Origin: a virus
Lineage: Duplodnaviria; Heunggongvirae; Uroviricota; Caudoviricetes
Strand: one strand, 5' to 3'
IMG/VR virus record: IMGVR_UViG_2778261416_000003
Coordinates: 1 to 18,122 of that record
DNA: 18,122 nt
In this document: in pieces, positions 2,092 to 18,122 of the stretch
Numbering within the stretch: position 1 is the first letter of the stretch
How the letters are laid out: each line of letters starts with the position of its first letter
Position numbers and translations under genes: made by a program
The notes under the pieces: generated by a model
The model's database searches: none
The model's input: the letters and a program-made list of their open reading frames with translations, nothing else
What the model was told of the DNA's origin: nothing

Positions 2092-2173
2092 AATAAAAAA
2101 ATAACCCGAGGGGTGACTCAGGTTATTTGAGGTTTCAGTCTCGGAGAATGCTGTCTCAAGCGAGGTGAATAAT

Positions 2174-3106: not shown

Positions 3107-3108
3107 TT

Positions 3109-3330
3109 ATGGCGGTATTTAATATTCCTGATATTTACGGACGCTTTTACCTGGTTAATTTCGATAACGTGAAGGTGATTTCACTGGCCGAAAATAAAGA
3201 ATGTGGCGATTTACTTTTTGAATTTAATGACCGCACACGAATGGTGATATCTGCCGGACTTGATCGCGAAGGTGCGACAGAAGTTTACAGCGGAATATGC
3301 CGTTCTGTTGGTGCGAAACAAGTCAGCTAA
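3109..3330 (+). CDS. small early protein, 73 aa; position and size match Mu kil but sequence not recognised
   Basis: ORF starts 2 nt after the B stop; AGGTG upstream of ATG 3109; synteny with the Mu early region. Confidence 0.5.
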   Translation: MAVFNIPDIYGRFYLVNFDNVKVISLAENKECGDLLFEFNDRTRMVISAGLDREGATEVYSGICRSVGAKQVS

Positions 3331-3342
3331 ATGAGGTGTTAT

Positions 3343-3597
3343 ATGAATATGCAATCCTGCGGTAACAAAATGAATTTATTCGACTCCCTGAACAGCGCGC
3401 GCCGTCTGACCGAACTTGCCGGTGCGGTACTGGAACGCAGTAAGCGCTATCCGCAACGTTTTGCACTGAAAACCACGCCGCCGGTAGGCAACGTGCAGGG
3501 AACCGGTGAAATTGAAATCACCATACAGACCAACGGCCTGCGCCGCCGTGTGAAGGCCACCCGCATCAGCGGCTGCACGGTTTACTGGGAGGTGTGA
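3343..3597 (+). CDS. hypothetical early protein (~84 aa)
   Basis: ORF with GAGGTG 4 nt upstream of ATG 3343 (track start 3331 in the same frame). Confidence 0.5.
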   Translation: MNMQSCGNKMNLFDSLNSARRLTELAGAVLERSKRYPQRFALKTTPPVGNVQGTGEIEITIQTNGLRRRVKATRISGCTVYWEV

Positions 3598-3598
3598 G

Positions 3599-3880
3599 GT
3601 GAAAAAAAATCTCATTGCATGGGCGTGGTCGAGTGGTCTTATTGAGTTTGGTTACGTCCTGCCGGAAGGTGCATTGCCGATAGTTGCCGGAAAGCCTGCC
3701 ACGGTACGGCATGTGATTGAGGTTATGGCGCGTCATGGACGTGATGAACAGGAGCAGTTACTGGTTCCGGGGATACCGGAAGCGGTGACGGAGGAAGAAG
3801 CCTTTAATGCCATGATTCGGTTCTGCCGTGAGGTTAGACGCCGGGTCAGTTATCCAAACAGAACGAGGACCAGAGGATGA
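3599..3880 (+). CDS. hypothetical early protein (93 aa, GTG start)
   Basis: GGAGG about 8 nt upstream of GTG 3599; stop overlaps the next start (ATGA at 3877). Confidence 0.5.
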   Translation: MKKNLIAWAWSSGLIEFGYVLPEGALPIVAGKPATVRHVIEVMARHGRDEQEQLLVPGIPEAVTEEEAFNAMIRFCREVRRRVSYPNRTRTRG

Positions 3881-4149
3881 GTAAAGTCGTACGCATTATT
3901 TTCGAATACAAGGAAGATGTTATCTGCAAAAACTCTGATGGCAGCACGCACAGAGGGGTAAGTCTGGATATACGTTCAACCGGAATAAAGAAGAAAGATA
4001 ATGGACCCGCCATGATTTTTGGGGTGGTTATGCTGGCAGAAAGCAGAAACTTCGCAGAGTTTGTGGCAATGAAAGCCAGTGCATTCATGAAAGACAGAGG
4101 CATGGCTTCCGGGGTTATTAACGGTAATGAATTTAATCAACAGGGGTAA
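3877..4149 (+). CDS. hypothetical early protein, member 1 of a tandem paralogue pair
   Basis: AGAGGA RBS then ATG 3877; N-terminus MSKVVRIIFEY resembles the next gene. Confidence 0.55.
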   Translation: MSKVVRIIFEYKEDVICKNSDGSTHRGVSLDIRSTGIKKKDNGPAMIFGVVMLAESRNFAEFVAMKASAFMKDRGMASGVINGNEFNQQG

Positions 4150-4153
4150 TTCC

Positions 4154-4447
4154 ATGAGCAAAGTACGCGTTATTTTTGAATTTAATCATGTTTCGCATGA
4201 CGAAAAGTTGGCAGGCAATGACTGTGTTGAAGTGCATGAAAAGATTGGAGTGGATGTGAAAACAGAACGTGATACGGATAACAGGCCGACGTCACTCTGT
4301 GACGTTTATGCAAGTATTCTCCAGTATCACAGTCCTGCAATTATTCAGTTTCTCTCAGCGGAATTTCAGGCATCTGCACAGTCTTTTGGAGCGGATGCCA
4401 TCATTAAACGCCACCGCGTGCATAAAGCATCAGGCACACTGCAATAA
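4154..4447 (+). CDS. hypothetical early protein, member 2 of a tandem paralogue pair
   Basis: AGGGG then ATG 4154 (internal Met of track ORF 4127..4447); N-terminus MSKVRVIFEF. Confidence 0.55.
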   Translation: MSKVRVIFEFNHVSHDEKLAGNDCVEVHEKIGVDVKTERDTDNRPTSLCDVYASILQYHSPAIIQFLSAEFQASAQSFGADAIIKRHRVHKASGTLQ

Positions 4448-4458
4448 GGAAAAACAAA

Positions 4459-4989
4459 ATGGCTAAACGCGTTACAAAATTAAAGGCCGCAGCCGAGGCG
4501 GCACCGCAGACCCGGGAAGAAGTCAGCCGTGATATCCGCACCCTGGGAGATATTCAGCGAGAGGCGCTGCGCCTGGAAACGGCGATGAATGACGAAGTGG
4601 CAGAAATCACCGCCCGTTATACGCCGCAGATTGAAAATCTTAAAAAGCAAATCAAAGTGCTTTTTAAAGGGATTCAGGACTGGTGCAAAACCAACCGTGA
4701 TGAGCTGACGAACGGCGGCAAAACCAAAACAGCCAATCTGACCACCGGAACGGTGTCATGGCGGCTGGGAACGCCATCATGCAGCGTCAGCCGTGATGTG
4801 GAAGGTGTGATTGAAATGCTGCGCCGTATGGGGCTTGAGCGTTTCATCCGCACGAAAGAGGAAGTGAACAAGGAAGCCGTCCTGGCGGAGCCGGATGCTG
4901 TGAAAGGCATTGCCGGTATCAAGGTGAATAAAGGCGCTGAAAGTTTTTATGTCGAGCCTTTTGAACAGGACGCCGGACTGAATAAATAA
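4459..4989 (+). CDS. gam: Mu Gam-like host-nuclease inhibitor (Ku-like dsDNA end-binding protein)
   Basis: 176 aa; colinear with Mu Gam (MAK...LKAAAEA, GDIQREALRLETAMNDEVAEIT, ANRDELTNGGKTKTANL, ERFIRTKEEVNKEA, EPFEQ); AAGGA RBS. Confidence 0.9.
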   Translation: MAKRVTKLKAAAEAAPQTREEVSRDIRTLGDIQREALRLETAMNDEVAEITARYTPQIENLKKQIKVLFKGIQDWCKTNRDELTNGGKTKTANLTTGTVSWRLGTPSCSVSRDVEGVIEMLRRMGLERFIRTKEEVNKEAVLAEPDAVKGIAGIKVNKGAESFYVEPFEQDAGLNK

Positions 4990-5134
4990 CACCACATTAA
5001 TCAATTAAATATCACTTCATTTTAATTATGGCGCTCGCGTCAGGGGACTGCTTGCGCCTGAAAACAGAAAATAAGGGTTAAGAAATATGAAATACGTTTA
5101 TATCGTCATTAATAATGTGGTGGGGAAATAAATC

Positions 5135-5668
5135 ATGATTGATGCAAAAGTGCTTGAAGGGGTTAAAAACTGGCTGTGTATTTATGGCCGCCTGACCTGC
5201 GGTGTACTGGCTGAAAAAATGAATATGCCGCCATCCTCCATGGTTTATTTTCTGCGTGATGCGGTTGATGCAGGCGTGCTGACGGAATGTAACGGTTTTT
5301 ATGATATTCCGCGCCCCCGCCCGGTGCAGCCGGTTCGTCGCAAATGCAGCCAGGAATCTGCGGCTGATGATGTTCAGTGGTGCGGCTTCAGAAAATCCCT
5401 GCCATGGATTGAGGGGCATGATATTCCGTCGATGGCGTGGGAATTTGCTCAGGGCGTTCTGACCTGTGAAACCGTTTATGTGGTGGCTGAAGTTGATGAG
5501 CAGGCCATGAAAGAAGGCGTGCCCCAGTTTGTGATGGCGTATATCGACATACGCCTGGGCGTCATTATCTGCGGTTTAAGCGGCTGGAATATCACTGAAC
5601 ATGTTCTGCGCTACCTGATTGTTGACCGGACAGCAGCGCCTGCCGGGATATCTGCGGAGGTGGCGTAA
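5135..5668 (+). CDS. hypothetical early protein with a possible N-terminal winged-helix DNA-binding region
   Basis: 177-aa ORF after a 145-bp AT-rich gap; GGGGA RBS; N-terminal pattern GRLTCGVLAEKMNMPPSSMVYFLRDAVDAGVL looks HTH-like. Confidence 0.55.
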   Translation: MIDAKVLEGVKNWLCIYGRLTCGVLAEKMNMPPSSMVYFLRDAVDAGVLTECNGFYDIPRPRPVQPVRRKCSQESAADDVQWCGFRKSLPWIEGHDIPSMAWEFAQGVLTCETVYVVAEVDEQAMKEGVPQFVMAYIDIRLGVIICGLSGWNITEHVLRYLIVDRTAAPAGISAEVA

Positions 5669-6183
5669 TGTTCTTTAAAACATCAAACCCTTCCGCGCTG
5701 GCTGCGTGGCAAAAATACCAGCAGGACTGCCAGAAAGTTAAGGATGAGGCAAAACGCCTTGAGGCCGTGCTGAATGTTGCGTGCCGGTCGGTATTTGTAT
5801 CCGGTATCAGTGGATTTTACTTTAAGGGACTGCGTTTTACGGAGGACAAATATCCTTTTCATCGCGACTTATGGCGAAAACCGACTGCGTCGAATGGCTG
5901 GAGCTGCACACCGCGCACATCACGTATCCCTAAAACCCTGCGTGTTGCCTCTGATGAACTGAACAGTCTGTGGCGTGAATATTCGCCCGTCACGTATGCC
6001 AGAACCGATGCGCTGTTGTTCTGGTTGGGTATTGATTTCTCGGCAATCCTGTTTGGCCCTGTGAAGTGGTTCTGCGTTGACGATGTGATTTACCTTCAGT
6101 GCGGCGTAAAACCCGCAAAACAGAAAATGACCGAAATACTGTCTGATGAGTTTTATGCTGCTGAAAAGCGAGTCAGGGGGTGA
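5668..6183 (+). CDS. hypothetical early protein (171 aa)
   Basis: GGAGGTGG RBS; start overlaps the upstream stop (TAATG). Confidence 0.55.
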   Translation: MFFKTSNPSALAAWQKYQQDCQKVKDEAKRLEAVLNVACRSVFVSGISGFYFKGLRFTEDKYPFHRDLWRKPTASNGWSCTPRTSRIPKTLRVASDELNSLWREYSPVTYARTDALLFWLGIDFSAILFGPVKWFCVDDVIYLQCGVKPAKQKMTEILSDEFYAAEKRVRG

Positions 6184-6186
6184 TGC

Positions 6187-6738
6187 ATGATGAAATTACA
6201 ACCCATGGGACTAAAAGGTCGCGCCCCCGCTCATGTCCGTCCGTGGACACCTGAAGAAGATGCGCTGCTGATTGCGCTTTATTCATCCACCCCGGTTAAG
6301 GATATTGCTGCCAGAATAAAAAGAACTGTCTGGGCTGTATATAACCGGACTGGTGTATTGCGCAGTTCATACCCGGAGTTACTGAAATATAAACACCCAA
6401 GATTTACACCTGATGAAGATAAGTTTATTCGAAAAAATGCCAGAACAATGACCTGCCAGCAAATGGGAGAATATCTCGGACGTAATAAAGATTCTGTCAG
6501 ATGTCGGGCAGGAATGATTGGTGCTGGATTAACAAAGTGCGGAGAGTTACGCCCCGGCACGCACATATCTGATGATGATGTACGTCTTATACGTGCGCTG
6601 CGTGATTCCGATTACCCACGCCGTCTGTCATTCCGGGAAATTGGCGAAAAGTTTGGAATATCTGAACATTCTGCTCACGCAGTTTATTACCGTCGCCGGA
6701 CTGCCGAGGACGCTGTATTACGGGAGTTAACGCCATGA
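6187..6738 (+). CDS. hypothetical early protein with three tandem HTH-like repeats
   Basis: 183 aa; repeated module W/F-T-P-E/D-E-D ... I-A/G-x-x-I/L-x-R-T/N/S (WTPEEDALLIALY..., FTPDEDKFIRKN..., ISDDDVRLIRAL...SFREIGEKFGIS); AGGGGG RBS. Confidence 0.6.
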   Translation: MMKLQPMGLKGRAPAHVRPWTPEEDALLIALYSSTPVKDIAARIKRTVWAVYNRTGVLRSSYPELLKYKHPRFTPDEDKFIRKNARTMTCQQMGEYLGRNKDSVRCRAGMIGAGLTKCGELRPGTHISDDDVRLIRALRDSDYPRRLSFREIGEKFGISEHSAHAVYYRRRTAEDAVLRELTP

Positions 6739-7064
6739 TAACGACCTTATTTGTTGAATCAGATGAACCTCTTGTGTGTGCCGCCGGAATGCCGCTCTGT
6801 GGCGGAACGCTGACCGGTGTTTATTTCGGGGATTTACGCGGTTATCCCTGGCATTCACTGAATGATGCTTTCCCACCTGATATGGAGGCTGCCGTGCTGA
6901 TTGTTCAGTATGGTCACCGTCAGGAGCTGCGCATCGGCCATATGGGGTATGAAGGCTTTTTTGTTGATGAAGAAACCGGAGCCTGCCTTGAAGATGAAGA
7001 CGGACAGGTGACGCACTGGTGTCATATTTCGGCTTTACCGGAATTACGGGAGGTGAATGCGTGA
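6735..7064 (+). CDS. hypothetical early protein (109 aa)
   Basis: ATGA overlap with the upstream stop; GGGAG RBS. Confidence 0.5.
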   Translation: MITTLFVESDEPLVCAAGMPLCGGTLTGVYFGDLRGYPWHSLNDAFPPDMEAAVLIVQYGHRQELRIGHMGYEGFFVDEETGACLEDEDGQVTHWCHISALPELREVNA

Positions 7065-7411
7065 GAAGTTATATTGATAATGAAAAGCTGGAGACAATAA
7101 GCGACTGTCTTAGCTTGCTGGCAAAAATCAAAGAAACTATTGAAGAGATTAAATTTCAGCTTGAATACGCACCATGTGGCGATGATGCATGGCGTAATGC
7201 TGCCAGAAAAGCACTGGCTGTCTTTCAGAAACAACGCCGGGCTGTTGAATACCGCCTTGCTGTATTGCGCCAGGAGGAAAAGGAAAGAAATATAAGACGT
7301 CATGAACGCGTTAATGATTTCCTTGTTCGTGAATTAAAAGAGCGCGTGCCGGAGTCGGTGTTTTTTGAATGTGAGGCTATAGCCCGTAGCAAAGCACTGG
7401 AAACAGATTAA
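7061..7411 (+). CDS. hypothetical early protein (~116 aa, GTG start), probably coiled-coil
   Basis: GGAGG upstream of GTG 7061, which overlaps the upstream stop (GTGA); charged heptad-like sequence. Confidence 0.5.
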   Translation: MRSYIDNEKLETISDCLSLLAKIKETIEEIKFQLEYAPCGDDAWRNAARKALAVFQKQRRAVEYRLAVLRQEEKERNIRRHERVNDFLVRELKERVPESVFFECEAIARSKALETD

Positions 7412-7426
7412 GCAGGCAGGTGAATA

Positions 7427-7735
7427 ATGAGTATTGAATTAAGATCGTCTTATGAATATCGCAAAATCCTTATCGCCGGAGGCATGAAACCGGAAGATGC
7501 AGAGAAATTCGTTTCTTTTATGGATAAAGAATGTGACAAGCGGGATATGCCAGAAATTATTATGGATGACATGATTCTGGATTCAGCCGTGGCGTTAAGT
7601 CCGTTATGGATTGTGCATACTCTTGCGGAAATAGCTAAAAGAAGTGACAAGCAGGCGGCTGTCGCCGCCCTGCGATTACTGGCTGAATTAAGTTGTTCAG
7701 TCAATCCCAATACGTTCTTTGACGAACCTGGTTAA
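7427..7735 (+). CDS. hypothetical early protein (102 aa)
   Basis: AGGTGA RBS then ATG 7427. Confidence 0.5.
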   Translation: MSIELRSSYEYRKILIAGGMKPEDAEKFVSFMDKECDKRDMPEIIMDDMILDSAVALSPLWIVHTLAEIAKRSDKQAAVAALRLLAELSCSVNPNTFFDEPG

Positions 7736-8107
7736 CATTGATTTGGTAACTTCTTTAATTAGATCAAATGGTGCGTCTGTAAACTCCTTTTTGATTCTTT
7801 CAAGGATTGGTTTTTTTCTCAGGGCGTTAGCTAAATCATGCCCCTGCTGGGTAAGCATAATGGGCGTGTTTCTGAAACCAACGCCCAGAGAATGGAAAAA
7901 GAAACCAATATATTTGGGTGTTTCTGACTGCATATCACCATTAACAATTGAGCCATTATCAGCGAGAAGCATAAGATGAAAAACTTTTTTATCCTTTTCC
8001 TCTCCTTCTGCCTCAGCCATGCCCAGATCCTGTAGTGTAAGGAAAGGTGTTTCAGCATCCTGAAAAGTTGTGAGAATACTTAATACTTCATCGTAATCTA
8101 TTTTCAT
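7697..8107 (-). CDS. hypothetical protein (136 aa), antisense moron at the early/late junction
   Basis: Only sizeable minus-strand ORF inside the + strand early operon; visibly AT-richer than flanks; AAAGG RBS upstream of ATG 8107 on the minus strand; 3' end overlaps the 7427..7735 gene convergently by ~39 bp. Confidence 0.5.
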   Translation of the reverse strand: MKIDYDEVLSILTTFQDAETPFLTLQDLGMAEAEGEEKDKKVFHLMLLADNGSIVNGDMQSETPKYIGFFFHSLGVGFRNTPIMLTQQGHDLANALRKKPILERIKKEFTDAPFDLIKEVTKSMLTRFVKERIGID

Positions 8108-8171
8108 ATCGATACCTTTAGTTTTATCCGGGCGGCGTTGCCATGCCGCCTGTTGTTACGGAGACACGATA

Positions 8172-8592
8172 ATGAATCGCGCTTCCCTGATTACCTTAAT
8201 ACATGTCGCAAAACGCGATCTACAGCTTGACCATGAGACCTACACATCCGTACTACTGGCAGCCACCGGCAAACCCAGTTGCCCGTTCAGAACGGTTTTC
8301 TGCCACCGTGCGTGGCTGGTTCCGGGATGATGGCCGGTTATGGGATGTCAATCTGCTGACCGGTGTTTCAGCCCTGCGTTTCGGTATAGAACAGACTGAA
8401 CTGCTGGTCTGTCAGGTGGAGTTTTTACTTGATGAACATAACGGGGAAGTCACCCGGCTGGTACTGGCACCGCGTGACGGCTTTATCGTTCCGGCAGAGC
8501 CGGACAGTAAGGGCCGGGGTGGTTCCGGTGACGATGTTGATGCCTTTATTCGCCAGCAGATGAAAAAACAGGGGATCAGCTTTGATGAATGA
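8172..8592 (+). pseudogene. GemA (Mu gp16)-like gene that changes frame, or a deletion-fusion remnant
   Basis: GGAGA RBS then ATG 8172; frame-0 ORF MNRASLITLIHVAKRDLQLDHETYTSVLLAATGKPSC... resembles the DUF1018/GemA N-terminus from memory but stops at 8330; the only long ORF continues in the +1 frame (8203..8592), has no RBS, and ends overlapping the gp45-like start. Confidence 0.35.
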
Positions 8593-9196
8593 TGAAGTGT
8601 TCAGCCGCCTGATTGCCCCGGTAACGCGCGGTATTCGCCTGTTGTTTGGCCGGGGCGTTCTGACCGGCACACATGACGAACTGAAAATGCAGAATGTGCA
8701 GCTCACCGGCATGGACGGCGAAACCTTTGATGATGTGGAGCGTCCCCAGCAGTACGGGCAGATCAGCGTTCCCCTGCCGGGTGCGGAAACCTTTTTTGCC
8801 TGTCTGGGCGGACAGCGGGATCAGACTGTGGTGCTTGTGGTGGAAGACCGGCGCAGCCGCCCGACCGGACTCACAGCCGGAGATACGGGGGTGTATCACC
8901 ATGAGGGGCACCGGATACGGTTAACAAAGGATGGTCGCATTATTGTGACATGCAAAATGCTGGAGATTTACGCCGATGAGGGGATGCGGGTGGATACGCC
9001 GGAGGCCACCTTTACGGGCAATGTGACGGTGGATAAAAACCTGCATGTTAAGGGTAATTTCGTGCTTGATGGTACAGGTAAATCAGACGGGCTGTTCACG
9101 ATGTCTGATGCCGTTATTGCCGGGATCACCTATTCCGGCCATGTGCATCAGGATAACGGCAAAGGCAGTAAGACAGGAGCGCCGGAGAATGGCTGA
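8585..9196 (+). CDS. baseplate assembly protein V-like (Mu gp45 family)
   Basis: ~203 aa; position directly upstream of gp46/47/48 homologues; gpV-like N-terminal region; ATG 8585 overlaps the upstream stop. Confidence 0.8.
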   Translation: MNDEVFSRLIAPVTRGIRLLFGRGVLTGTHDELKMQNVQLTGMDGETFDDVERPQQYGQISVPLPGAETFFACLGGQRDQTVVLVVEDRRSRPTGLTAGDTGVYHHEGHRIRLTKDGRIIVTCKMLEIYADEGMRVDTPEATFTGNVTVDKNLHVKGNFVLDGTGKSDGLFTMSDAVIAGITYSGHVHQDNGKGSKTGAPENG

Positions 9197-9626
9197 TATT
9201 GCAATTGTATGGGATCAGGGGTGCGGTTCGCTGCAACTGAACGGTGCCGACCTGCTGACGGATGACAGTCTGCTGACGGCCGTTCTGATTTCGCTGTTTA
9301 CTGACCGCCGGGCGCTGGCATCGGATGAAATCCCTGACGGTACGCGTGACCGCCGGGGATGGTGGGGAGACAGTTTTCGCCCGCGTCCCATTGGCTCCCG
9401 TCTGTGGCTTCTCCGCCGGGAAAAAACGCTGGCCTCGGTGATAAGCCGTGCCCGTGCTTACGCGGATGAGGCGCTGGGCTGGCTCAGTCAGGATGGCGTG
9501 GCGTCATCCGTGGTCTGTCATGCAGAACGTGTGGGACACGCGCGGCTGGCGCTTTCGGTGCGCATAACCCTGCCTGATGGTTCAGTGAGGCCCATGATTT
9601 TTTATGCTGATCTTAAGGGGGAGTAA
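9189..9626 (+). CDS. Mu gp46-like baseplate protein
   Basis: ~145 aa from ATG 9189 (internal Met of track ORF 9045..9626, overlapping the gp45 stop); GWWGD motif; synteny. Confidence 0.8.
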   Translation: MADIAIVWDQGCGSLQLNGADLLTDDSLLTAVLISLFTDRRALASDEIPDGTRDRRGWWGDSFRPRPIGSRLWLLRREKTLASVISRARAYADEALGWLSQDGVASSVVCHAERVGHARLALSVRITLPDGSVRPMIFYADLKGE

Positions 9627-10708
9627 TGCCTTATCAGCCTTTACCGCTGGCACAGTTAATCACGCAGACACAGCAGGATATCAGCCAGCGCCTGCCCGGC
9701 TCGCAGCCGGGTGTGAATGAAACCACCCTGAATGCCATTGCTTACGCTCAGGCAGGGTTATCTGCTCAGGAGCATGAGCATCTGGCCTGGATTGCGCGTC
9801 AGATCATCCCGACCGAAGCCGATGAAGCCGAACTGCTGAAACACTGTGCATTCTGGGGCGTCATGCGTAAGCCTGCCTCTCGGGGGGACGGGCCGGTTCA
9901 GCTGATGCTGACCACGGATGCGGGGATCAAGGAAGGTGTGCTTCTCCAGCGAAGTGATGGCGTGGTTTACCGTATCACCACCTCCCTGACCGGTAAGGCC
10001 GGTACGCTGAATGTCAGTGTGGAAGCCGAAAGTGCCGGTCGTGCGGGGAATGCCCCGGCAGGGACAAAACTGACATTTATCACACCGCAGGCGGGGATCA
10101 ACCAGACGGCCACGGTGACCGGAACGGGGATCACCGGTGGTGCGGATGTGGAAACCGTGCCGGAGCTGCTTTCCCGTCTGGTTTTCCGGGTGCAGAATCC
10201 ACCGTCCGGCGGCACGCAGTATGATTTTGAACGCTGGGCGCGTGAAGTGCCGGGCGTGACGCGGGCATGGTGCCGCCCGGAATGGCCGCAGGCGGGCAGC
10301 GTGGGGGTAACGTTTGTTCAGGATAATAACCCGGACATTTTCCCCGGTGACGGTGATGTTCAGCGGGTGGCGGATTATATCCGCAGTCATGATGATCCGG
10401 CGACCGGCCAGCCTGTCGGACAGCCTCTGGGGCCGACGGTGACCGTGTTTAAACTGACCAATAAGCCGGTGCCCTTCAGCATCAGGATCATCCCGAAAAC
10501 ACCGGAGAATCAGGCGGCCGTAAAACAGGCGCTGACCGACCTGTTGTATAACGAATCCCGGCCCGGCGGTCTGGTTCTGCCGTCGTCTTTCTGGCGGGCG
10601 GTGGCAGGGGTGAAAAATCTGGAGGATTTTGAAGTGCGCAGTCCGCTGACGTCAGTTCAGGCGGGAGACAGTGAGCTGCTGACGGTAGGAGAAATCACAT
10701 GGCTGTAA
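9626..10708 (+). CDS. baseplate J-like protein (Mu gp47 family)
   Basis: 360 aa; GGGGGAG RBS; TAATG overlap with gp46; size and position match Mu gp47 / P2 J. Confidence 0.8.
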   Translation: MPYQPLPLAQLITQTQQDISQRLPGSQPGVNETTLNAIAYAQAGLSAQEHEHLAWIARQIIPTEADEAELLKHCAFWGVMRKPASRGDGPVQLMLTTDAGIKEGVLLQRSDGVVYRITTSLTGKAGTLNVSVEAESAGRAGNAPAGTKLTFITPQAGINQTATVTGTGITGGADVETVPELLSRLVFRVQNPPSGGTQYDFERWAREVPGVTRAWCRPEWPQAGSVGVTFVQDNNPDIFPGDGDVQRVADYIRSHDDPATGQPVGQPLGPTVTVFKLTNKPVPFSIRIIPKTPENQAAVKQALTDLLYNESRPGGLVLPSSFWRAVAGVKNLEDFEVRSPLTSVQAGDSELLTVGEITWL

Positions 10709-11259
10709 CCCTGACCCCGCATCAGCGCGCCCTGTTGCAGTTACTGCCTGACGGGCTGGCATGGGACAAGCGTCCGTCATCCGTACTGGCATCATTATGT
10801 CTGGGCCTCAGTCATTCGACAGCGCGTGTATCCTGGACGGGTAAACAGCTGCTTGCCGAGCGTTTCCCTGACACGTCGCGCCTGCTGCTGGAAGACTGGG
10901 AGCGTTATCTCGGGCTTCCCGAGTGTGATATGGCCGGAGCCACCCTCACGGAGCGACAGCGTTATGCCGGAAATAAATACCGGATGAAGCCCTCGCTGAA
11001 CCGTGAATTTTATATCCGGTTTGCGGCGGAGTTTGGTTATCAGATTGACATTCAGCCCTCACCGGATTCGCAGTGGGTCAGTATTGTCACGATTAACAGT
11101 GAAACCGGCTACCGGAATATGAATGTGCTGGATGATATTCTCACGCCGCTGCGTATTTATGAAGGCGGTGCGCTGGAATGTATTCTGAACCGTTATAAGC
11201 CTGCATGGCAGACGTTTATTTACGTTTATGCAAACAGCCATGAAGAGGAGACTATTTAA
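10699..11259 (+). CDS. Mu gp48-like tail protein (DUF2313 / YmfQ-like)
   Basis: 186 aa; AGGAG RBS; lies between the baseplate J-like gene and the tail fibre as in Mu and e14. Confidence 0.75.
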
Positions 11260-12140
11260 TGTTTCATGTTGATAATAATTCCGGCGTGGCGAATATGCCT
11301 GCGCTGGCACCGGCGCAGAGTAATACCACCACCTGGTTTACCGAAGGTGACGGACAAAAAGGTATCAGCTGGATTGGTCAGGACTGGCTGAATATTCTCC
11401 AGGCCGAACTGCTGAATATTCTGGCTGAAGCCAGTATTCAGCCGGATAAGGCGCAGTTAAACCAGCTTACGCTGTCCATTAAAGCCATTATCGCTGCGAA
11501 TGCCTTTTCCCGGAAAAATAACCTGAAAGAAATTGCTGATGCCGGTGCGGAGGCCCAGCGTCTGGCCCGTGGTTATCTTGGTCTGGGGACGCTTGCCACA
11601 AAAAACAGTCTTGGTCCCGCTGACATTAATGCCCTGGCGAAGGATCAGAATCTCGCCGACCTGGAGAATAAGGGAACCGCCCGTAATAATCTGGATGTTT
11701 ACAGCAAAAGCGAAGGTGATAACCGTTACCTGCGCAGGGAGCAGAACGGCGCAGACATTCCGGATAAAGGGGCTTTTATCGATAACGTCGGTTTACGGGA
11801 AACGGTAAACAGGGCGGCGAATGCCCTGCCATCGGACGGCACCGCCGTTGCCGCGAACAGGCTGGCAAATGCCCACACAATTAATGGTGTTCCCTTTGAC
11901 GGGACGCAGGATATCACTATCTCATCAGGAACAGTAACCGCCATAAGACTGGGGTCGGTGACCGCACATATGCCCGGAACATGGGAAAGCTGGGATCTGA
12001 ATCTGGGGGGCGGCAATGTTCTTACCGGAATTAAAGTACAGGATGTCGGTAAGAATACGGCAGATAACGTCGGCGGCGTGTATTACCGGCCGTTGCAGTA
12101 TCTGTTAAATGGAGCATGGGTGACGGCTGCAAGTATATAA
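11259..12140 (+). CDS. tail fibre protein, constant N-terminal part plus variable C-terminal part (current orientation)
   Basis: 293 aa; tail-fibre-like N-terminus; C-terminal [18 protein letters not shown] resembles the P2 H C-terminus; a gix-like site lies inside the gene at 11776..11801. Confidence 0.85.
11776..11801. repeat. gix-like recombination site, left (inside the tail-fibre gene)
   Basis: TTATCGATAACGTCGGTTTACGGGAA, about 22/26 identical to the reverse complement of the Mu gix sequence as remembered; the inverted repeat begins at its centre. Confidence 0.7.
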
Positions 12141-12149
12141 TGATATTCA

Positions 12150-12173
12150 GAAGGCCTTCCGGCCTTCTTTATT
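12150..12173. terminator. intrinsic terminator hairpin between the convergent fibre and assembly genes
   Basis: GAAGGCC-TTCC-GGCCTTC (7-bp stem, 4-nt loop) followed by TTTATT on the + strand. Confidence 0.6.
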
Positions 12174-12693
12174 ACTGTGGCTGCTCAGGCCATTTAATGG
12201 CGTTAAATTCAGCTTCTGTTTTAATGGCGGGTAGTTCCATTTTCTTCACCTGACTGATGTATGCCATCCATTGGGTAAGTGCTGCTCTGTCTTCATCGCT
12301 GATGGTGCCCAGTTGTAGCTCCGTTCTCCAGTCATTAATTTTTTCATATGCCTGATTAAGATATGACTGGCGCATTGCTTCCAGTTTTCTTGCGTAGTTA
12401 ACCGGAATACGGGAGATTATGCCATTATCAAACTTCCAGTTTCCTGAAATATCCGTGCCTTCAGGGAGTTCATCGACCTCAACCACAGAAAACCCCGCAG
12501 GATACAGCGCCGAGGCGTCCTGTGATATTGAGCAGATAACGCCGCTGTCAGGTGTTATGCAAAGTTTATATTTTTTGGTGAATAATGGCAGGGATTCGTA
12601 GAAATCCTTACCATCTTCACTCTGGAAATACTGAACATTATTACCATATGGCATATTTTCAGGATAATAACGGGTTATATTTTTTAGTTCCAT
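12172..12693 (-). CDS. tail fibre assembly protein (Tfa / Mu U' / P2 G family)
   Basis: 173 aa; SEDGKDFYE...DASALYPAGFSVVEVDELP and C-terminal WPEQPQ match Tfa-family proteins such as e14 TfaE as remembered. Confidence 0.85.
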   Translation of the reverse strand: MELKNITRYYPENMPYGNNVQYFQSEDGKDFYESLPLFTKKYKLCITPDSGVICSISQDASALYPAGFSVVEVDELPEGTDISGNWKFDNGIISRIPVNYARKLEAMRQSYLNQAYEKINDWRTELQLGTISDEDRAALTQWMAYISQVKKMELPAIKTEAEFNAIKWPEQPQ

Positions 12694-12744
12694 AAAATCC
12701 TCCTGGAAATAAATCTGTTTTAAAATATATTATTTACTGACTAT

Positions 12745-13107
12745 TTATAACTGAGATACCGTAATCCATGTACCTCCGACTAATTTTTGCAGGGGTCTGA
12801 ATGCTATAAAATCGTTTGAAGCATCAACTTTACTGTCAATCTGCAGGCCTGCCATAACATTACCGTACGCAGAGTAATATGCCCCACCGTACATTACCTG
12901 CCTGTTCTCTGCTCCCAGCCTGATATCCTGGATATATCGGGAATCCGCATCCTGCTGTGTTATACCAGAAGTGATGTTTATGTCCTGCGTCCCGTCAAAG
13001 GGAACCCCATTAATATTTCTTGGGGTGGCGAGTCTATTCGCGGCAACGGCGGTGCCGTCCGATGGCAGAGCATTCGCCGCCCTGTTTACCGTTTCCCGTA
13101 AACCGAG
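12745..13107 (-). CDS. alternative tail-fibre C-terminal cassette (S'v-like); start-less, expressed only after inversion
   Basis: Minus-strand frame from the gixR centre to stop at 12745 reads [24 protein letters not shown]...FRPLQKLVGGTWITVSQL, sharing the first ~23 aa and the C-terminal pattern with the + strand fibre; followed on the minus strand by the Tfa gene. Confidence 0.75.
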   Translation of the reverse strand, partial: LGLRETVNRAANALPSDGTAVAANRLATPRNINGVPFDGTQDINITSGITQQDADSRYIQDIRLGAENRQVMYGGAYYSAYGNVMAGLQIDSKVDASNDFIAFRPLQKLVGGTWITVSQL

Positions 13108-13118
13108 GTTTTCAGGAA
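13093..13118. repeat. gix-like recombination site, right
   Basis: TTCCCGTAAACCGAGGTTTTCAGGAA, about 22/26 identical to the Mu gix sequence TTCCTGTAAACCGAGGTTTTGGATAA as remembered. Confidence 0.75.
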
Positions 13119-13183
13119 AGCCAGGATTAACTCTGTTTTATTCCTCATGCGACAATTCCGGCTTTTTATAATAAGGAAATCGT

Positions 13184-13756
13184 ATGCTGATTGGGTATAT
13201 CAGGGTGTCAACAAATGACCAGAATACGGCGCTACAAAGAAATGCGCTGGAATGTGCAGGATGTGAGCTGTTTTTCGAAGACAGAATAAGCGGTAAGACA
13301 AGGGAGCGTCCCGGACTTAAACGCGCATTAAAGCGACTCCGGCCAGGGGATACCCTGCTGGTCTGGAAACTGGATCGCCTTGGACGCAGTATGCAGCACC
13401 TTGTCCTTTTAACAGAAGAACTCCGGCAACGCGGCGTTAACTTCCGCAGCATTACGGACAATATTGATACATCCACTCCCATGGGACGTTTCTTTTTCCA
13501 TATAATGGGCGCGCTGGCGGAAATGGAGCGGGAACTCATTATTGAACGTACACGCGCGGGTCTTGCTGCTGCCCGTGCTCAGGGGCGTCATGGCGGCAGA
13601 CCTCAGAAACTGACAGAGAAAGAGCGGGAGCAAATCGCCCGTTTGCTGGCTAATGGCGAGTCCCGTAAACAAATCGCACTGATATTTGATATTGGCCTTT
13701 CCACCCTTTATCGTTATTTTCCTGCCTCACCAGCTCCGTCACCAAAAGTACCGTGA
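13184..13756 (+). CDS. gin: serine DNA invertase (Gin/Pin/Hin family)
   Basis: 190 aa; MLIGYIRVSTNDQN catalytic-serine N-terminus, WKLDRLGRSM, GRFFFHIMGALAEMERELIIERT, C-terminal HTH; near-colinear with Pin/Gin; AAGGA RBS. Confidence 0.95.
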   Translation: MLIGYIRVSTNDQNTALQRNALECAGCELFFEDRISGKTRERPGLKRALKRLRPGDTLLVWKLDRLGRSMQHLVLLTEELRQRGVNFRSITDNIDTSTPMGRFFFHIMGALAEMERELIIERTRAGLAAARAQGRHGGRPQKLTEKEREQIARLLANGESRKQIALIFDIGLSTLYRYFPASPAPSPKVP

Positions 13757-13765
13757 CGCTTTTTT
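13737..13765 (+). terminator. candidate intrinsic terminator at the end of gin
   Basis: CGTCAC ... GTGACG (6-bp stem, 10-nt loop) followed by C plus T6 (13760..13765). Confidence 0.45.
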
Positions 13766-13841
13766 GAATTTCCGCAAAACACATATTTTTCAGCGGTCGC
13801 TATTCTGACTCTGTTTAATTCAGAAACAGGCAGAAAAGACG

Positions 13842-15896
13842 ATGTCAGACTCCAAGTGGAAAATGCTCTCCGCCATGCCCGGAGAGTTTTCAGTCAAGGT
13901 TGCCGGTGGCACGGTGGCATTTATTGAAAGCCCTTTCCGCCCTTCGGGTAATAAAGGGGGGATCACCTTCGCAGACTGCGTGATCCGCTTCAGCACGAAA
14001 GAGCCATTATGGGTAATGCCGGTATCCGGTAATCCCAGTGCAGAAATCACCAGTTCAGGCGTGACTGGCATCATTCCAATCACATCTGACGTGGCCGGAA
14101 CGCTCACGCCCTCCGACTGGAATGCACCGGATAACGCCGGGCCTTCCGGTAGCACGAATGGCAGCAGTTCAAAGCCGGAATATTACTTTGTTGTCATTCT
14201 CGCGGGTCAGTCAAATGGCATGGCCTACGGCGAGGGGCTGCCGTTACCGGATTCGTTTGACCGCCCGGACCCACGCATTAAGCAACTGGCACGCCGCAGT
14301 ACGGTAACGCCCAACGGTACGTCGTGTACATACAACGACATCATTCCGGCAGACCACTGCCTGCATGATGTTCAGGATATGAGCGGGATAAACCACCCGA
14401 AAGCTGATCTGGCAAAAGGCCAGTACGGGACTGTCGGTCAGGGGTTGCATATTGCCAAAAAACTGCTTCCCTATATCCCACAGAATGCCGGGATACTTCT
14501 GGTGCCCTGTTGTCGTGGCGGGTCAGCATTCACCACTGGAGCCGACGGCTCATTCAGTGAGGCCAGCGGTGCTTCCGCTGATTCTTCACGCTGGGGGGCC
14601 GGTAAACCTCTGTATCAGGACCTGGTAAGCCGCACCAAAGTCGCGCTGGCGAAAAACCCGAAAAACAAACTTCTGGCTGTGGTCTGGATGCAGGGAGAGG
14701 CAGACCTTGCCTCAGGAAGCCAGCAGCATAATAGTTTATTCACGGCCATGGTTCAGCAGTTCAGAACTGACCTGGCTCCGCTTGCTGCGCAGTGCGTGAG
14801 TGGAAATGCCACCACGGTGCCGTGGATTTGCGGTGATACCACGTATTACTGGAAAAACGCTGGCACCGATAAATATGAGGCAGTATACGGTGGCTACAAA
14901 GGCAAGGAAGCACAGAAAATTTTCTTTGTACCGTTCCTGACGGATGAGAATGGACAGAGCACGCCAACGAATGCTCCGGCGGAAGACCCGGATATTGTGG
15001 CTGTCGGGTATTACGGTGCAGCATCCCGAACCCAGGGCAGTTTTGTTTCGACACAGCGTGACAGCCATTTCAGCTCATGGGCACGCAGGGGCGTCATTTC
15101 AGACCGTCTGGCCTCAGCTATTATGCTCCATGCAGGGCGCACGGCTGAACTGATGCGCGGGCAGACCGTGACACCACCGGATGAGAAGCCGTCACCTGAT
15201 ACACCATCAAAACCGTCCACGCCACCCGCAGACACCACGACGATGAGTACGCTATTTGCTTACCGGGCATCTGAGTCTGAAGGACGGTTGACACCACAGG
15301 GTTGGGCTGCCGGAGGTGGCAAGGCTCAAATCGTGGATGATGCCGGAGCCAGCGGGGGTAAGGCAATGAAACTGACCAAGGAAACAGGAAGAGCCCCCTG
15401 GTACCTTGAGCATGATGCTGGTAATGGTGCGGACCTGCTGGGTAAAGGTGGTCTTGTCAGTTGTCGTTTTAAACTCGATGGCGCGCTTACGGCTAATCAG
15501 TACGCACTGGCGCTGTACTGGCCGGTTTCTGCCCTGCCGCAAGGGGTTACTCTGGAAGGAAATGCCGGTCATAACCTGCTGGCATCGTTCTACGTACAGA
15601 GCGATGCCACAGACCTTAACGTGATGTATCACAAAGGAAACACGGCGCAGAACACGAAGCTGGGGTCATTCGGCGCATTTAATAACGAATGGCATACGCT
15701 GGGCTTCCGTTTTGCCGGTAACAACAGTATTGAGGTGACACCGGTCATTGATGGTAAGGACGGGACACCATTCATGCTGTCGCAGTCTCCGGTCGGCACG
15801 TTTACGGCAGACAAGTTGCGCGTGACCGATATCACTAAAAATGCGACTTACCCGGTACTGATTGACAGTATCGTGGTGGAAGTGAATAACGCGTAA
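13842..15896 (+). CDS. prophage-type sialate O-acetylesterase (NanS-p-like; SGNH/SASA esterase core, Pro/Ser/Thr linker, C-terminal lectin-like domain)
   Basis: 684 aa; esterase-core motif ILAGQSNGMAYGEGLPLPD, then VPCCRGGSAF and WMQGEADL; PPDEKPSPDTPSKPSTPPADTTT linker; location after tail-fibre genes as for NanS-p in Stx prophages; start codon uncertain. Confidence 0.75.
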   Translation: MSDSKWKMLSAMPGEFSVKVAGGTVAFIESPFRPSGNKGGITFADCVIRFSTKEPLWVMPVSGNPSAEITSSGVTGIIPITSDVAGTLTPSDWNAPDNAGPSGSTNGSSSKPEYYFVVILAGQSNGMAYGEGLPLPDSFDRPDPRIKQLARRSTVTPNGTSCTYNDIIPADHCLHDVQDMSGINHPKADLAKGQYGTVGQGLHIAKKLLPYIPQNAGILLVPCCRGGSAFTTGADGSFSEASGASADSSRWGAGKPLYQDLVSRTKVALAKNPKNKLLAVVWMQGEADLASGSQQHNSLFTAMVQQFRTDLAPLAAQCVSGNATTVPWICGDTTYYWKNAGTDKYEAVYGGYKGKEAQKIFFVPFLTDENGQSTPTNAPAEDPDIVAVGYYGAASRTQGSFVSTQRDSHFSSWARRGVISDRLASAIMLHAGRTAELMRGQTVTPPDEKPSPDTPSKPSTPPADTTTMSTLFAYRASESEGRLTPQGWAAGGGKAQIVDDAGASGGKAMKLTKETGRAPWYLEHDAGNGADLLGKGGLVSCRFKLDGALTANQYALALYWPVSALPQGVTLEGNAGHNLLASFYVQSDATDLNVMYHKGNTAQNTKLGSFGAFNNEWHTLGFRFAGNNSIEVTPVIDGKDGTPFMLSQSPVGTFTADKLRVTDITKNATYPVLIDSIVVEVNNA

Positions 15897-15901
15897 GCAG
15901 G

Positions 15902-15943
15902 ATAAAAAAATGCCGCCGGTAAGGGAAAACAAGAAACCGGCGG
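15902..15943 (-). terminator. minus-oriented intrinsic terminator
   Basis: GCCGCCGGT ... ACCGGCGGC (9-bp stem, 15-nt loop); on the minus strand the hairpin is followed by T7 (+ 15903..15909). Confidence 0.45.
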
Positions 15944-15992
15944 CAAAAAGATCGTTATATCCAAAGCAAAAAATGCAGTGCACCTTTTTACC
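15903..15992 (-). ncRNA. candidate small RNA (~90 nt) divergent from the small membrane-peptide gene
   Basis: Minus-strand TTGACA (+ 16025..16020), 15-nt spacer, TAATAT (+ 16004..15999), then the terminator above; no ORF. Confidence 0.25.
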
Positions 15993-16040
15993 TAACAGAT
16001 ATTACCGGTGTCAACACCATGTCAATAATTGGGAGGGATA

Positions 16041-16223
16041 ATGACATTTTTACAGCTTATTTTATTGTATTTCTGCACGGCAGTATGTGCGTTATATCTG
16101 GTGAGTGGTGGTTATAAGGCCATCAGAAATTATGTTCGCCGCAAAATTGAGGACGCAGCAGCTGAAAAACTCAGTAAAACAGCGCAGGTAACTCCGCTCC
16201 CAAAAGACCCGACCCAGCCCTGA
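16041..16223 (+). CDS. small membrane peptide (60 aa, one predicted TM helix, basic C-terminal tail)
   Basis: GGGAGGG RBS 4 nt upstream of ATG 16041; hydrophobic stretch FLQLILLYFCTAVCALYLVSGG; terminator immediately downstream. Confidence 0.45.
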   Translation: MTFLQLILLYFCTAVCALYLVSGGYKAIRNYVRRKIEDAAAEKLSKTAQVTPLPKDPTQP

Positions 16224-16238
16224 TTGCAGGGCTTTATT
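16216..16238 (+). terminator. intrinsic terminator overlapping the stop codon of the membrane-peptide gene
   Basis: AGCCCTG-ATTG-CAGGGCT (7-bp stem, 4-nt loop) followed by TTATT. Confidence 0.5.
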
Positions 16239-16258
16239 CCCGCATAAGGAGGATATAC

Positions 16259-16513
16259 ATGCCAGAAATTAAAGGCACCGTCACTGAAGACCTGGTAAAA
16301 CAGGCACTGTATTCCGGTGAAGTAAATAAGTTGCTGAAAGCGCAGGTCCGCAAGGATTTTGAGGCACAAATCGACACTTACGTTGATGAAGTGCTGGCAA
16401 AACTTATTGGGCCAGCAGTTGCGGCCAGTGATGCTGATAATGAGCCGAAAACCGACGCGCAGCCAGAGCAACCAGACCCGGCTCAGCCCGGAACTGACAG
16501 TACCATGATGTAA
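16259..16513 (+). CDS. hypothetical acidic protein (84 aa)
   Basis: AGGAGG RBS 6 nt upstream of ATG 16259; hairpin CAAACCGG ... CCGGTTTG (16519..16546) downstream. Confidence 0.5.
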   Translation: MPEIKGTVTEDLVKQALYSGEVNKLLKAQVRKDFEAQIDTYVDEVLAKLIGPAVAASDADNEPKTDAQPEQPDPAQPGTDSTMM

Positions 16514-16680
16514 CAATACAAACCGGTGGTGTCCTCTGCCGGTTTGACACTAATGAAAACATCTTTGCCGCTATCCAGCCATATGTAATCGCTGGATAGT
16601 ATTTCGTATTCAGAAATATAGCTGCTTATGGAGCAGTCAATCCTGCTTCCCCATCCGGGCAGGCAAATGAACCGGTATCA

Positions 16681-16974
16681 TTAGTCCGATTCACGCTTTT
16701 GTAGAATCGTTCCCAGAATGCTATACAGCTCATTAGCCTGTTGCTCCATCATTGAGACGGAGGCTATACGGTGCAAAGTGATTTCAGGAGGTGGCACACC
16801 TCCATCTTCTTGCTGTGGAGGAAAAACATAAGATTTAATAAAAAAGTTGAAGCATATGAACTCTCCCGCACTCGAACTGTATTTGCAGGCATCTGAATAA
16901 TCGGAAAAATAATCATTATAGATTTCCGCATTTTCAATCATTTTTCGATTTCTCGTCGTTACATGATTGTCCAT
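16681..16974 (-). CDS. hypothetical protein (97 aa), divergent from com-mom
   Basis: AAGAGG RBS 5 nt upstream of ATG 16974 on the minus strand; AT-rich; downstream hairpin CTATCCAGC ... GCTGGATAG at 16567..16598. Confidence 0.45.
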   Translation of the reverse strand: MDNHVTTRNRKMIENAEIYNDYFSDYSDACKYSSSAGEFICFNFFIKSYVFPPQQEDGGVPPPEITLHRIASVSMMEQQANELYSILGTILQKRESD

Positions 16975-17097
16975 AGCAGCCTCTTACGCTGGCAATTAAC
17001 CAATTGACTTCTATAAATTAGTTGATTTGTTTGCTTTGCGGTATTCAAATGTACAATCATTCAGCACTTATGCGTTACAGCACCGTTTAAAATTAGT

Positions 17098-17190
17098 GAT
17101 CAAACTCATAAATTTTCGCTAATGACATTTCGTGTTATTTGTTGTATCAATTAAATAAATCAAATCGATCGTTTTTGTCGATCGATTGAG
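17098..17190 (+). promoter_or_regulatory. com-mom upstream regulatory region with three GATC (Dam) sites and a palindrome
   Basis: GATC at 17098..17101, 17167..17170 and 17180..17183; palindrome AATCGATCG-N7-CGATCGATT (17163..17187); Mu mom is known to be controlled by Dam methylation of three upstream GATC sites. Confidence 0.4.
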
Positions 17191-17230
17191 TGATAAAGAT
17201 ATCAACAACAAAGCAGGAGGTTATGCGGCC

Positions 17231-17431
17231 ATGTATCGAAACATACGGTGCCGACATTGTAACAAGCTACTGGCACGAGCCAGCTTCAGTTATCTGGAAG
17301 TTAAATGTCCGCGCTGTAAAACCCTCAATCAAATCACATCTCAGAGCGCCACAGAGCACCCCACATACACAAGGAAATCCTGTCGTGGGGAACAGAAAGC
17401 AAGTTACATCCCGTATCATCAGCACGCCTGA
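17231..17431 (+). CDS. com: Com-like zinc-finger translational activator of mom
   Basis: 66 aa; CxxC...CxxC (CRHC ... CPRC); AGGAGG 10 nt upstream of ATG 17231; overlaps the mom reading frame as in Mu. Confidence 0.75.
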
Positions 17432-18122
17432 ACTTATTCACTATAACGACAATATCGTCGGTTATGGCTCCCGTGAGTTACGGGTTGAGACAATAAGTTG
17501 CTGGCTGGCCCGGCTGGTCGTCGTCAATAAACATTACAGCCATCGTTTCGTAAATAATTCCTACCTTCATCTGGGCATATTTTCAGAACGGGAGCTGGTT
17601 GGCGTAATGCAATGGGGTTATGCCCTTAATCCAAACAATGGTGCACGCGTCGTAACTGGCACGCAGAACCGCGAATATATGGAGCTTAACCGGTTATGGC
17701 TGCATGACTGTATGCCGAGAAACTCCGAATCAAGGGCAATCAGTTACGCGCTCAAACTAATCAGACAACTTTATCCGCAGGTGCAGTGGGTTCAGTCGTT
17801 TGCAGATGAGCGTTGTGGCTGTCTTGGTGTCGTGTACCAGGCAAGCAATTTTGATTATGTAGGCAGTCATGAAACAACATTCTATGAACTTGATGGCGAG
17901 TGGTATCACGAGATTTGCAAGAATGCAATCAAACGAGGAGGACAGCGAGGTGAACATCTGCGGGCTAATATCGACAGAGCCAGTGTTCATAAATTCCGTC
18001 AGTTTCGTTACATCCGGTTTCTGGACAAGAGAGCCAGAAAACGCCTTAACACAAAGCTATTCAAAGTCCAGCCTTACCCAAAACCACAAACAGTTAAAAC
18101 TGGTTTGAAAGAGAGTGAATGA
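17385..18122 (+). CDS. mom: Mom-like DNA modification protein; start uncertain (ORF open from 17190)
   Basis: Long ORF in a different frame overlapping the 3' half of com; GTG 17385 has AGGA 9 nt upstream; rightmost-gene position after gin and com as in Mu. Confidence 0.7.

Follow-up and report, generated by a model that had tools for sequence, protein, structure and literature searches.

Two alternative tail-fibre tips and a single assembly gene in the Gin-type invertible cassette of Sp18-type Mu-like prophages

The textbook case of host-range bet-hedging in phages is the invertible fibre cassette, in whose standard form each alternative fibre tip is accompanied by a chaperone gene of its own. 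The cassette described here lies in an 18,122-nucleotide (nt) stretch of DNA (the window; IMG/VR record IMGVR_UViG_2778261416_000003, positions 1 to 18,122). It contains two alternative 3' ends of a tail-fibre gene, SvA and SvB, and one tail-fibre assembly (chaperone) gene, tfa, which lies on the strand opposite to the end that is in frame now. How, then, is the fibre provided with Tfa in the present orientation, or does its tip fold without any?

The element is a Mu-like prophage of Escherichia coli, because its invertase, Tfa, fibre, tips and gene context match those of Mu, and it is of Sp18 type. Mu-type genes of the element include a transposase (PHROG, E = 3e-211), a DNA transposition protein, kil, gam and Phage_Mu_Gp48, with baseplate gene J upstream of the cassette and com and mom downstream. 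Several hundred sequenced genomes of E. coli, O157:H7 included, harbour prophages of the Sp18-type family. Its members possess two or three tips and one chaperone gene, which is wrongly oriented in the commoner state of the segment. Both the family and its invertible region are already known: an invertible host-specificity region in Sp18 was noted by Asadulghani et al., 2009 (PMC2669165). The one-chaperone layout departs from the paradigm set by Mu and P1, and our search found no published treatment of it.

We report that this layout is the conserved norm of the Sp18-type family and not a peculiarity of the window. We further propose, at roughly even odds, that one Tfa may be shared by both tips and supplied independently of orientation. 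Folding of the fibre in the SvA state bears on whether Tfa proteins are generalists shared among tips and on whether Mu-class tips fold alone. Both questions are relevant to the engineering of fibres for phage therapy and to the prediction of host range from sequence, and their answer would refine a known mechanism, not reveal a new one.

The invertible segment and its two fibre tips

The cassette is a host-range switch, in which a Gin-family invertase and two inverted gix sites join a 176-codon part of the fibre gene to either SvA or SvB. The invertible segment is 1,317 base pairs (bp) long, bounded by the two sites and adjoined by the invertase gene. The left, gixL-like 26-bp crossover site (11776..11801; TTATCGATAACG TC GGTTTACGGGAA) has its TC core at 11788-11789 and shares 22 of 26 positions with Mu gixL. 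Its gixR-like counterpart, also of 26 bp (13093..13118; TTCCCGTAAACC GA GGTTTTCAGGAA), has the core GA at 13105-13106 and 21/26 identical positions with Mu gixR. The two sites are inverted with respect to each other and their 2-bp cores match; the left one is kept in all relatives examined, and the right one is conserved in relatives too. With one site inside the fibre gene, recombination by the invertase swaps the tip. The invertase itself (13184..13756, + strand) is a serine DNA invertase of 190 amino acids (aa), recognized by Pfam Resolvase (E = 1.6e-51), HTH_7 (E = 4.9e-15) and PHROG 125 (DNA invertase). It is 74% identical to Mu Gin and keeps the motif YIRVSTNDQ; the similarity to Mu gin, seen in the protein, takes in the 5' part of the gene, which has no bearing on a Fis-dependent enhancer.

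A repeat search found long inverted repeats reaching from the sites into the coding region, with the left arm at 11781..11929 and the right arm at 12965..13113. The repeat finder divides them into a block of 86 nt with 93% complementarity (11781-11866 / 13028-13113) and a block of 50 nt with 84% (11880-11929 / 12965-13014), a complementarity far beyond chance. The first ~47 codons are common to both variable ends. The two blocks of the left arm are separated by a mismatch-dense block of about 23 nt at 11857-11879, which is a dimorphic coding patch encoding RLANAHT or RLATPRN; in other lineages either form may occur in either arm. The first-pass annotation of this DNA had described a Gin-invertible tail-fibre cassette with a ~124-bp inverted repeat and gix-like sites centred at 11788/11789 and 13105/13106. 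All of these coordinates proved correct, and the description agrees with the gix sites, the Gin-like invertase, the homology of the fibre to Mu S and the presence of both orientations in genomes. The 23-bp divergent block within the repeat, pointed out in the same place, is real, though it is merely the dimorphic patch.

In its present assembly (Sc + SvA), the fibre gene occupies 11259..12140 on the + strand and codes for 293 aa (PHROG 1833, tail fibre, E = 1.5e-140). The constant part, Sc, consists of 176 codons outside the invertible segment (11259..11788, +) and stops at the gix core. Residues 1-191 of the fibre match residues 1-191 of Mu S (PDB 5yvq_A and 8ju3_A; E about 1e-46), so that homology extends up to the crossover site. 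The crossover falls at the same codons as in Mu, where the residues are FIQNLGLQETV. SvA, the variable end in frame now, comprises 116 codons and a stop (11789..12140, +) and is followed by no chaperone gene on its strand. Its tip falls into the Mu S/S' class, with Mu S' as the best-scoring match.

SvB, the silent and promoterless alternative end, has 119 codons and a stop and is located at 12745..13104 on the - strand. In-silico inversion at the cores joins it to Sc and exchanges the last ~117 fibre codons in frame. The resulting open reading frame (ORF) of 296 aa ends in ...FRPLQKLVGGTWITVSQL, differs in its last ~70 residues, and is followed by tfa on the same strand. This form of the fibre is annotated in frame in FORC_043 and NCCP 13983, and genome annotations include the other form as well. 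Both tips can be aligned to the C-terminal domains of Mu S and S', and a C-terminal Y/F-R-P-x-Q...W-x-T motif is common to SvA, SvB and both Mu tips. Translation and in-silico inversion thus bear out the earlier description of a 293-aa fibre whose end can be swapped in frame for one of ~120 aa followed by Tfa. In the flipped copy of FORC_043 (locus L001, about 3100-3400) the silent SvA is out of frame owing to a 1-nt indel beside a run of C. SvA is intact in the clonal NCCP 13983 copy; the indel could be an error of sequencing, or else an unexpressed tip may be starting to decay.

That the segment inverts can be seen directly from comparison of genomes. Genomes were counted with either the window or the flipped sequence as query, and complete genomes collinear over at least 80% of the query were accepted. 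The window sequence gave 20 such genomes, and the flipped sequence gave six, four of them at least 99.7% identical. Over the cassette region, five complete genomes are 100% identical to the window. The clearest pair is FORC_029 and NCCP 13983, whose genomes measure 5,189,944 and 5,189,943 bp and carry the prophage at the same site, in a fimbrial usher gene beside elfD. Over 17,601 bp their differences are confined to the segment and fall to zero after an in-silico flip at the gix cores; Sc is identical in both orientations. The crossover between them could be narrowed to a 20-bp interval including the core. In another pair, from the Sp18-type loci L007 and L008, a polymorphic base of the inner half-site moves with the segment and the outer half-sites stay put. 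DLI.5a and TOE17 each have two prophage copies, one per orientation. The first-pass annotation had considered that relatives might lack the inverted orientation and have lost the gix sites; instead, both orientations occur among prophages at least 99.7% identical. The segment is therefore a working flip-switch in this prophage family. In agreement with this, phase variation by inversion was shown experimentally in the 'Mu prophage' of enteropathogenic E. coli (EPEC) E2348/69 by Goldberg et al. 2014 (PMC4272514), a prophage that may or may not belong to the Sp18-type family.

A single assembly gene and its layout among relatives

The sole assembly gene of the cassette, tfa (12172..12693, - strand), codes for 173 aa. 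Its product belongs to Pfam Caudo_TAP (PF02413, E = 4.8e-19; 69 bits against a cut-off of 22) and to PHROG 136 (E = 4.7e-56), and it matches Mu U (PDB 5yvq_B, E = 4e-16). The C-terminal half is 34% identical to Mu U' and 26% to U. Between the stop codon of SvB and the start of tfa lies an A+T-rich spacer of 51 nt (12694..12744, -), which carries an AGGAGG ribosome-binding site. On the other side, the convergent stop codons of SvA and tfa are 31 nt apart. This gap is filled by a G+C-rich hairpin (12149..12168), which a terminator scan marks as terminator-like on both strands, with fold energies of -21.9 and -18.4 kcal/mol and z = -3.15 on each strand; all lineages have a hairpin at the same place. 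Because the gap is so short and is taken up by the hairpin, there is no space for a second chaperone gene. None is annotated in the full-length prophage copy, and a three-round hidden Markov model (HMM) search of all ORFs of 98 loci yielded none for this cassette. Downstream of SvA, none of the ORFs on the + strand is conserved from one lineage to another. The asymmetry noticed at first pass, two tips with one Tfa, is accordingly real, and Mu does have one tfa per tip, as had been said.

The same layout was found in every relative opened, both in E. coli (L003-L011) and in Citrobacter (L012). Its conserved order is gixL, SvA, hairpin, tfa (reverse), SvB (reverse), gixR, invertase gene and DUF6645 gene. 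Relatives that have it include STEC2017-197, STEC299, SCU-171, STEC2018-553, CI5, an O157:H7 strain and a Mu-like insert within an Stx2c phage. Across Sp18-type lineages the spacer before tfa measures 51-121 nt and contains tfa's own ribosome-binding site. Between the long-spacer lineages L003 and L004 it is 93% identical, against 79% at synonymous sites of tfa, a weak signal of conservation because divergence along tfa is mosaic. In long-spacer lineages (L003, 2995-3046; same place in L004, L005 and L006) an upstream in-frame ATG would lengthen Tfa by a hydrophobic stretch of 17 residues (MAIVLFLFLSLIFMVMF), where PGAP annotates the shorter form of 173 aa.

Two variants of the layout were observed. 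In the related Mu-like prophage of Citrobacter braakii ATCC 51113 (L012, 4820-7300) the fibre is 472 aa long. Gix-like sites are found at about 4820, 6856 and 7223, and there are three alternative tips of Mu class but only one tfa, of 229 aa, with a 69-nt spacer between it and the tip upstream. In E. coli M3 (L006, 2400-3320), M1, M18 and one CI5 copy, gixR is gone together with most of SvB and of the invertase gene, and the prophages are frozen in the SvA orientation. In these M3-type prophages the convergent tfa is intact and roughly 140-190 nt of its upstream region are retained.

The closest relatives described so far are Sp18 of O157:H7 Sakai and its kin in O157:H7 and other STEC (L007, L008), which belong to the same family and share its gene order. 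They differ in having tips A2 and B3 in place of A1 and B1 of the window and another Tfa subtype, and cassette DNA identity is about 83-85%. The G segment of Mu is alike in its invertase, in its gix sites, placed at corresponding codons of a homologous fibre gene, in the class of its tips, in U and U', which are homologous to Tfa, and in the transposase genes A and B upstream and com and mom downstream. In contrast to the window, Mu has two tfa genes (S-U and S'-U'), each 2 nt past its tip, and not one behind a 51-nt spacer. Its segment is about 3 kilobases (kb) long against 1.3 kb, its variable ends are about 320 aa against about 117-120 aa, and no gene lies between gin and com at the place where the window family has the NanS-p esterase gene. 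The inverted repeat of the window extends about 140 bp into the coding region, whereas that of Mu measures 34 bp, as quoted in PMC4406740. An own assembly gene for each variable end, as in Mu, was found neither in the window nor in the relatives examined.

Invertases of the Gin family (Cin, Pin and Min) flip alternative fibre 3' ends also in the C segment of P1, the P segment of e14 and Min of p15B, which, unlike the window element, are not Mu-like transposable phages. Each variable end in these switches is generally described as having a tfa-type gene of its own, and long inverted repeats within the coding region are known from P1.

For a wider comparison, 80 IMG/VR loci around relatives of the invertase were searched with a Tfa profile. 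In 12 cassettes with two convergent tfa genes, each tfa starts -1 to +13 nt from the stop codon of its tip. Unambiguous examples of several tips with a single tfa are the Sp18-type family, the Citrobacter prophage and Erwinia phage ENT90, with A+T-rich spacers of 51-121, 69 and 107 nt, respectively. ENT90 resembles the window in its alternative tips with inverted repeats, the adjoining Gin-family invertase and the position of its one tfa after the spacer. It differs in its P2-like backbone, in three repeat sites arranged like a shufflon, and in tips (...IAIG[YNC]) and Tfa of another class. The one-chaperone layout thus recurs in at least one unrelated phage backbone. The three tips of ENT90 (L018, 1-2600) end in ...FRAIGY, ...YILIGN and ...WIAIGC. 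Other IMG/VR cassettes also seemed to have one tfa; the two inspected, L029 and L072, were rejected as clean precedents, as an ORF of 60-68 aa resembling the N-terminus of Tfa follows the second tip in both.

Supply of Tfa in the SvA orientation

In the reading that we favour, to which we give a probability of about 0.5, a single Tfa would serve both tips. The tfa gene, with its own ribosome-binding site and a spacer of 51-121 nt, would act autonomously, so that Tfa is available whichever way the segment lies. With SvA in frame, it could be supplied from an unrecognised promoter or by flipped sister copies that arise by replicative transposition. One Tfa for both tips is suggested by the shared class and motif of the tips, by tfa genes that follow SvA-like tips elsewhere, and by the occurrence of one Tfa type with several tips. 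Modules reassort freely between lineages: SvA occurs in two types, of 116 and 126 aa, SvB in four and the Tfa C-domain in three. C-domain type 1 is combined with SvB types B1, B1', B2 and B3 and with SvA types A1 and A2, as would be expected if the chaperone reads the conserved motif and not the variable surface. The three tips and one tfa of ENT90 were counted as support for a shared chaperone as well, and so were the prevalence of the SvA orientation and the distance of tfa from the tip before it, which is larger than the -1 to +13 nt of Mu and the 12 double-tfa cassettes.

Several observations weigh against a shared and independently supplied Tfa. No sigma-70 promoter was found upstream of tfa on its strand in the window, and the matches in L003 and L012 are at chance level. 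In the SvA orientation tfa is antisense to the sole known late transcription, and late transcripts are expected to stop at the hairpin behind SvA. A look-alike of the putative late-promoter motif described below, upstream of tfa at 12758-12792 (-), was rejected: it scores 2.6, where the true sites reach about 41, it ranks 787th of 77,032 positions, and neither L011 nor L003 has conserved it. Dependence of SvA on a chaperone is itself drawn from homology and gene neighbourhood alone. Lastly, the orientation counts are not independent, since many strains are clonal and clonal descent inflates the figures: SvA is in frame in about 182 genomes with Sp18-type prophages, against 25 for SvB, and in roughly 200 of about 230 complete genomes when both prophage types are combined.

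It is conceivable, though rather unlikely, that SvA folds without any Tfa, that Tfa is needed by SvB only, and that inversion toggles the tip together with the presence of Tfa on it. The gene order is most simply read in this way, with tfa co-oriented with SvB only and no promoter detectable otherwise, with a terminator-like hairpin directly past SvA, and with the SvA orientation predominant in genomes. In its favour we also count that TfaMu is said, in work ascribed to North et al. 2019 and to North and Davidson 2021, to stay on the fibre tip and bind lipopolysaccharide. Some Mu-like fibres, for example that of Sf14, are reported without a chaperone homologue (PMC11821841). However, SvA is of the same class as SvB, Mu S and S' and has kept their conserved C-terminal motif. 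Moreover, all SvA-like tips examined outside the family are followed by tfa or a tfa-sized gene within 2-17 nt: the gap is 2 nt in Mu (S'-U'), 5 nt in Cronobacter phage CR8 and 2 nt in Actinobacillus phage pPE4, in all of which tfa is annotated. In Escherichia phage 19-1-2 it is 17 nt and precedes a 194-aa ORF annotated as hypothetical. Chaperone-free folding also leaves unexplained why tfa is uncoupled, with a spacer in front and a ribosome-binding site of its own. If it were true, Mu-class tips would not be strictly Tfa-dependent. A more specific form of the idea appears unlikely to us: the commoner orientation would display a Mu-class tip folded free of Tfa and the other a different tip capped by Tfa, so that a second, chaperone-derived adhesin would be toggled.

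Might the SvA orientation be an OFF or decayed state, with a misfolded fibre and non-infectious particles, left behind when a U'-like gene was lost? The presence of two tfa genes in Mu and one in the window family points this way, as do deletion derivatives, namely M3-type prophages without SvB and invertase and the window copy, which lacks 19.6 kb. Pairwise ratios of nonsynonymous to synonymous substitution (dN/dS) speak another language, being 0.08-0.15 for SvA, about 0.11 for SvB and 0.1-0.2 for Tfa, with dS >1 reached between lineages. Strong purifying selection on an intact SvA marks it as a coding module that is functional and being maintained; SvB and tfa are under purifying selection as well. 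All lineages examined, Citrobacter too, have conserved the layout, and the SvA orientation, as the majority state in about 230 genomes, is therefore unlikely to be a dead one. We regard loss of function as highly improbable.

Tfa could also reach SvA in trans, from the tfa of a co-resident lambdoid or P2-like prophage or from a second Mu-like copy in the opposite orientation. Strains with two oppositely oriented copies do exist (DLI.5a and TOE17), and the combination of one Tfa C-domain type with several tips suggests broad tolerance; Tfa proteins of different phages are reported to be partly interchangeable. Most genomes, however, have a single copy, with a median of 1-2 matching places per genome for the window-type query, and other prophages are repressed during lytic growth of this one. 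A layout kept by purifying selection across lineages is unlikely to rest on chance co-residents. Supply in trans seems improbable to us.

The late promoters of this phage were considered in connection with the autonomous expression of tfa that a shared Tfa would call for. The Mu C-box TTAT-N6-ATAA, present at Mu Pmom, has one match in the window, which is unrelated to tfa and was discarded; the window phage evidently uses another late site. A motif TTTCTGAnnTnCCGCAAA-N~20-TAnnCT stands upstream of lys, of protease gene I and of nanS-p, with sites at 13759-13809 (+) of the window and at 10600-10651 (-) and 2413-2464 (-) of L017. Part of the upstream block of the lys site scores on the reverse strand as well, which hints at dyad symmetry. 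The motif looks like the late promoter and activator site of this phage, and the NanS-p esterase would then be a late gene. No site of this type was found upstream of the tail genes or com. In the tfa spacer of ENT90 a P2-type (Ogr-type) box, TGT-N12-ACA, was noticed at 813-830; it was set aside as only a lead, matches being at chance frequency in that locus and none preceding the sheath gene. A search of the window against Rfam gave no match.

The window prophage and neighbouring genes

The prophage of the window is a deletion derivative and is defective. Positions 135-7050 correspond to the Mu early region, where kil, gam and the transposase genes A and B lie. Further on, at 8156-8283, a gp16-family gene is represented by its first 128 nt, and from 8279 on the sequence continues with the 3' part of baseplate gene P. 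Compared with the full-length copy in JE86-ST05, about 19.6 kb are absent, among them the late activator of the Mor/C family, the genes for lysis and head, and those for sheath, tube, tape measure and N. The junction of this deletion was not seen in any complete E. coli genome of the collection. Because the late activator, head and most tail genes are deleted, the window copy is unable to build particles by itself, and without help from a second copy there is no particle for its fibre. The cassette is intact, identical to that of intact prophages, and can probably still flip.

Downstream of the invertase gene lies a gene for a NanS-p type prophage 9-O-acetyl-sialic-acid esterase of 684 aa (13842-15896, +), with a SASA domain and DUF6645 and with matches to PDB 3pt5 (E = 1.7e-117) and 6yp6 (E = 7e-98). 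It has the same position after the invertase in all relatives. In the full-length relative of JE86-ST05 (L002, 2383-8285) the sheath, tube, tape-measure and N genes are annotated as frameshifted. This strain harbours several Mu-like copies: the cassette query has six matching places in its genome, and the early region matches at another chromosomal position.

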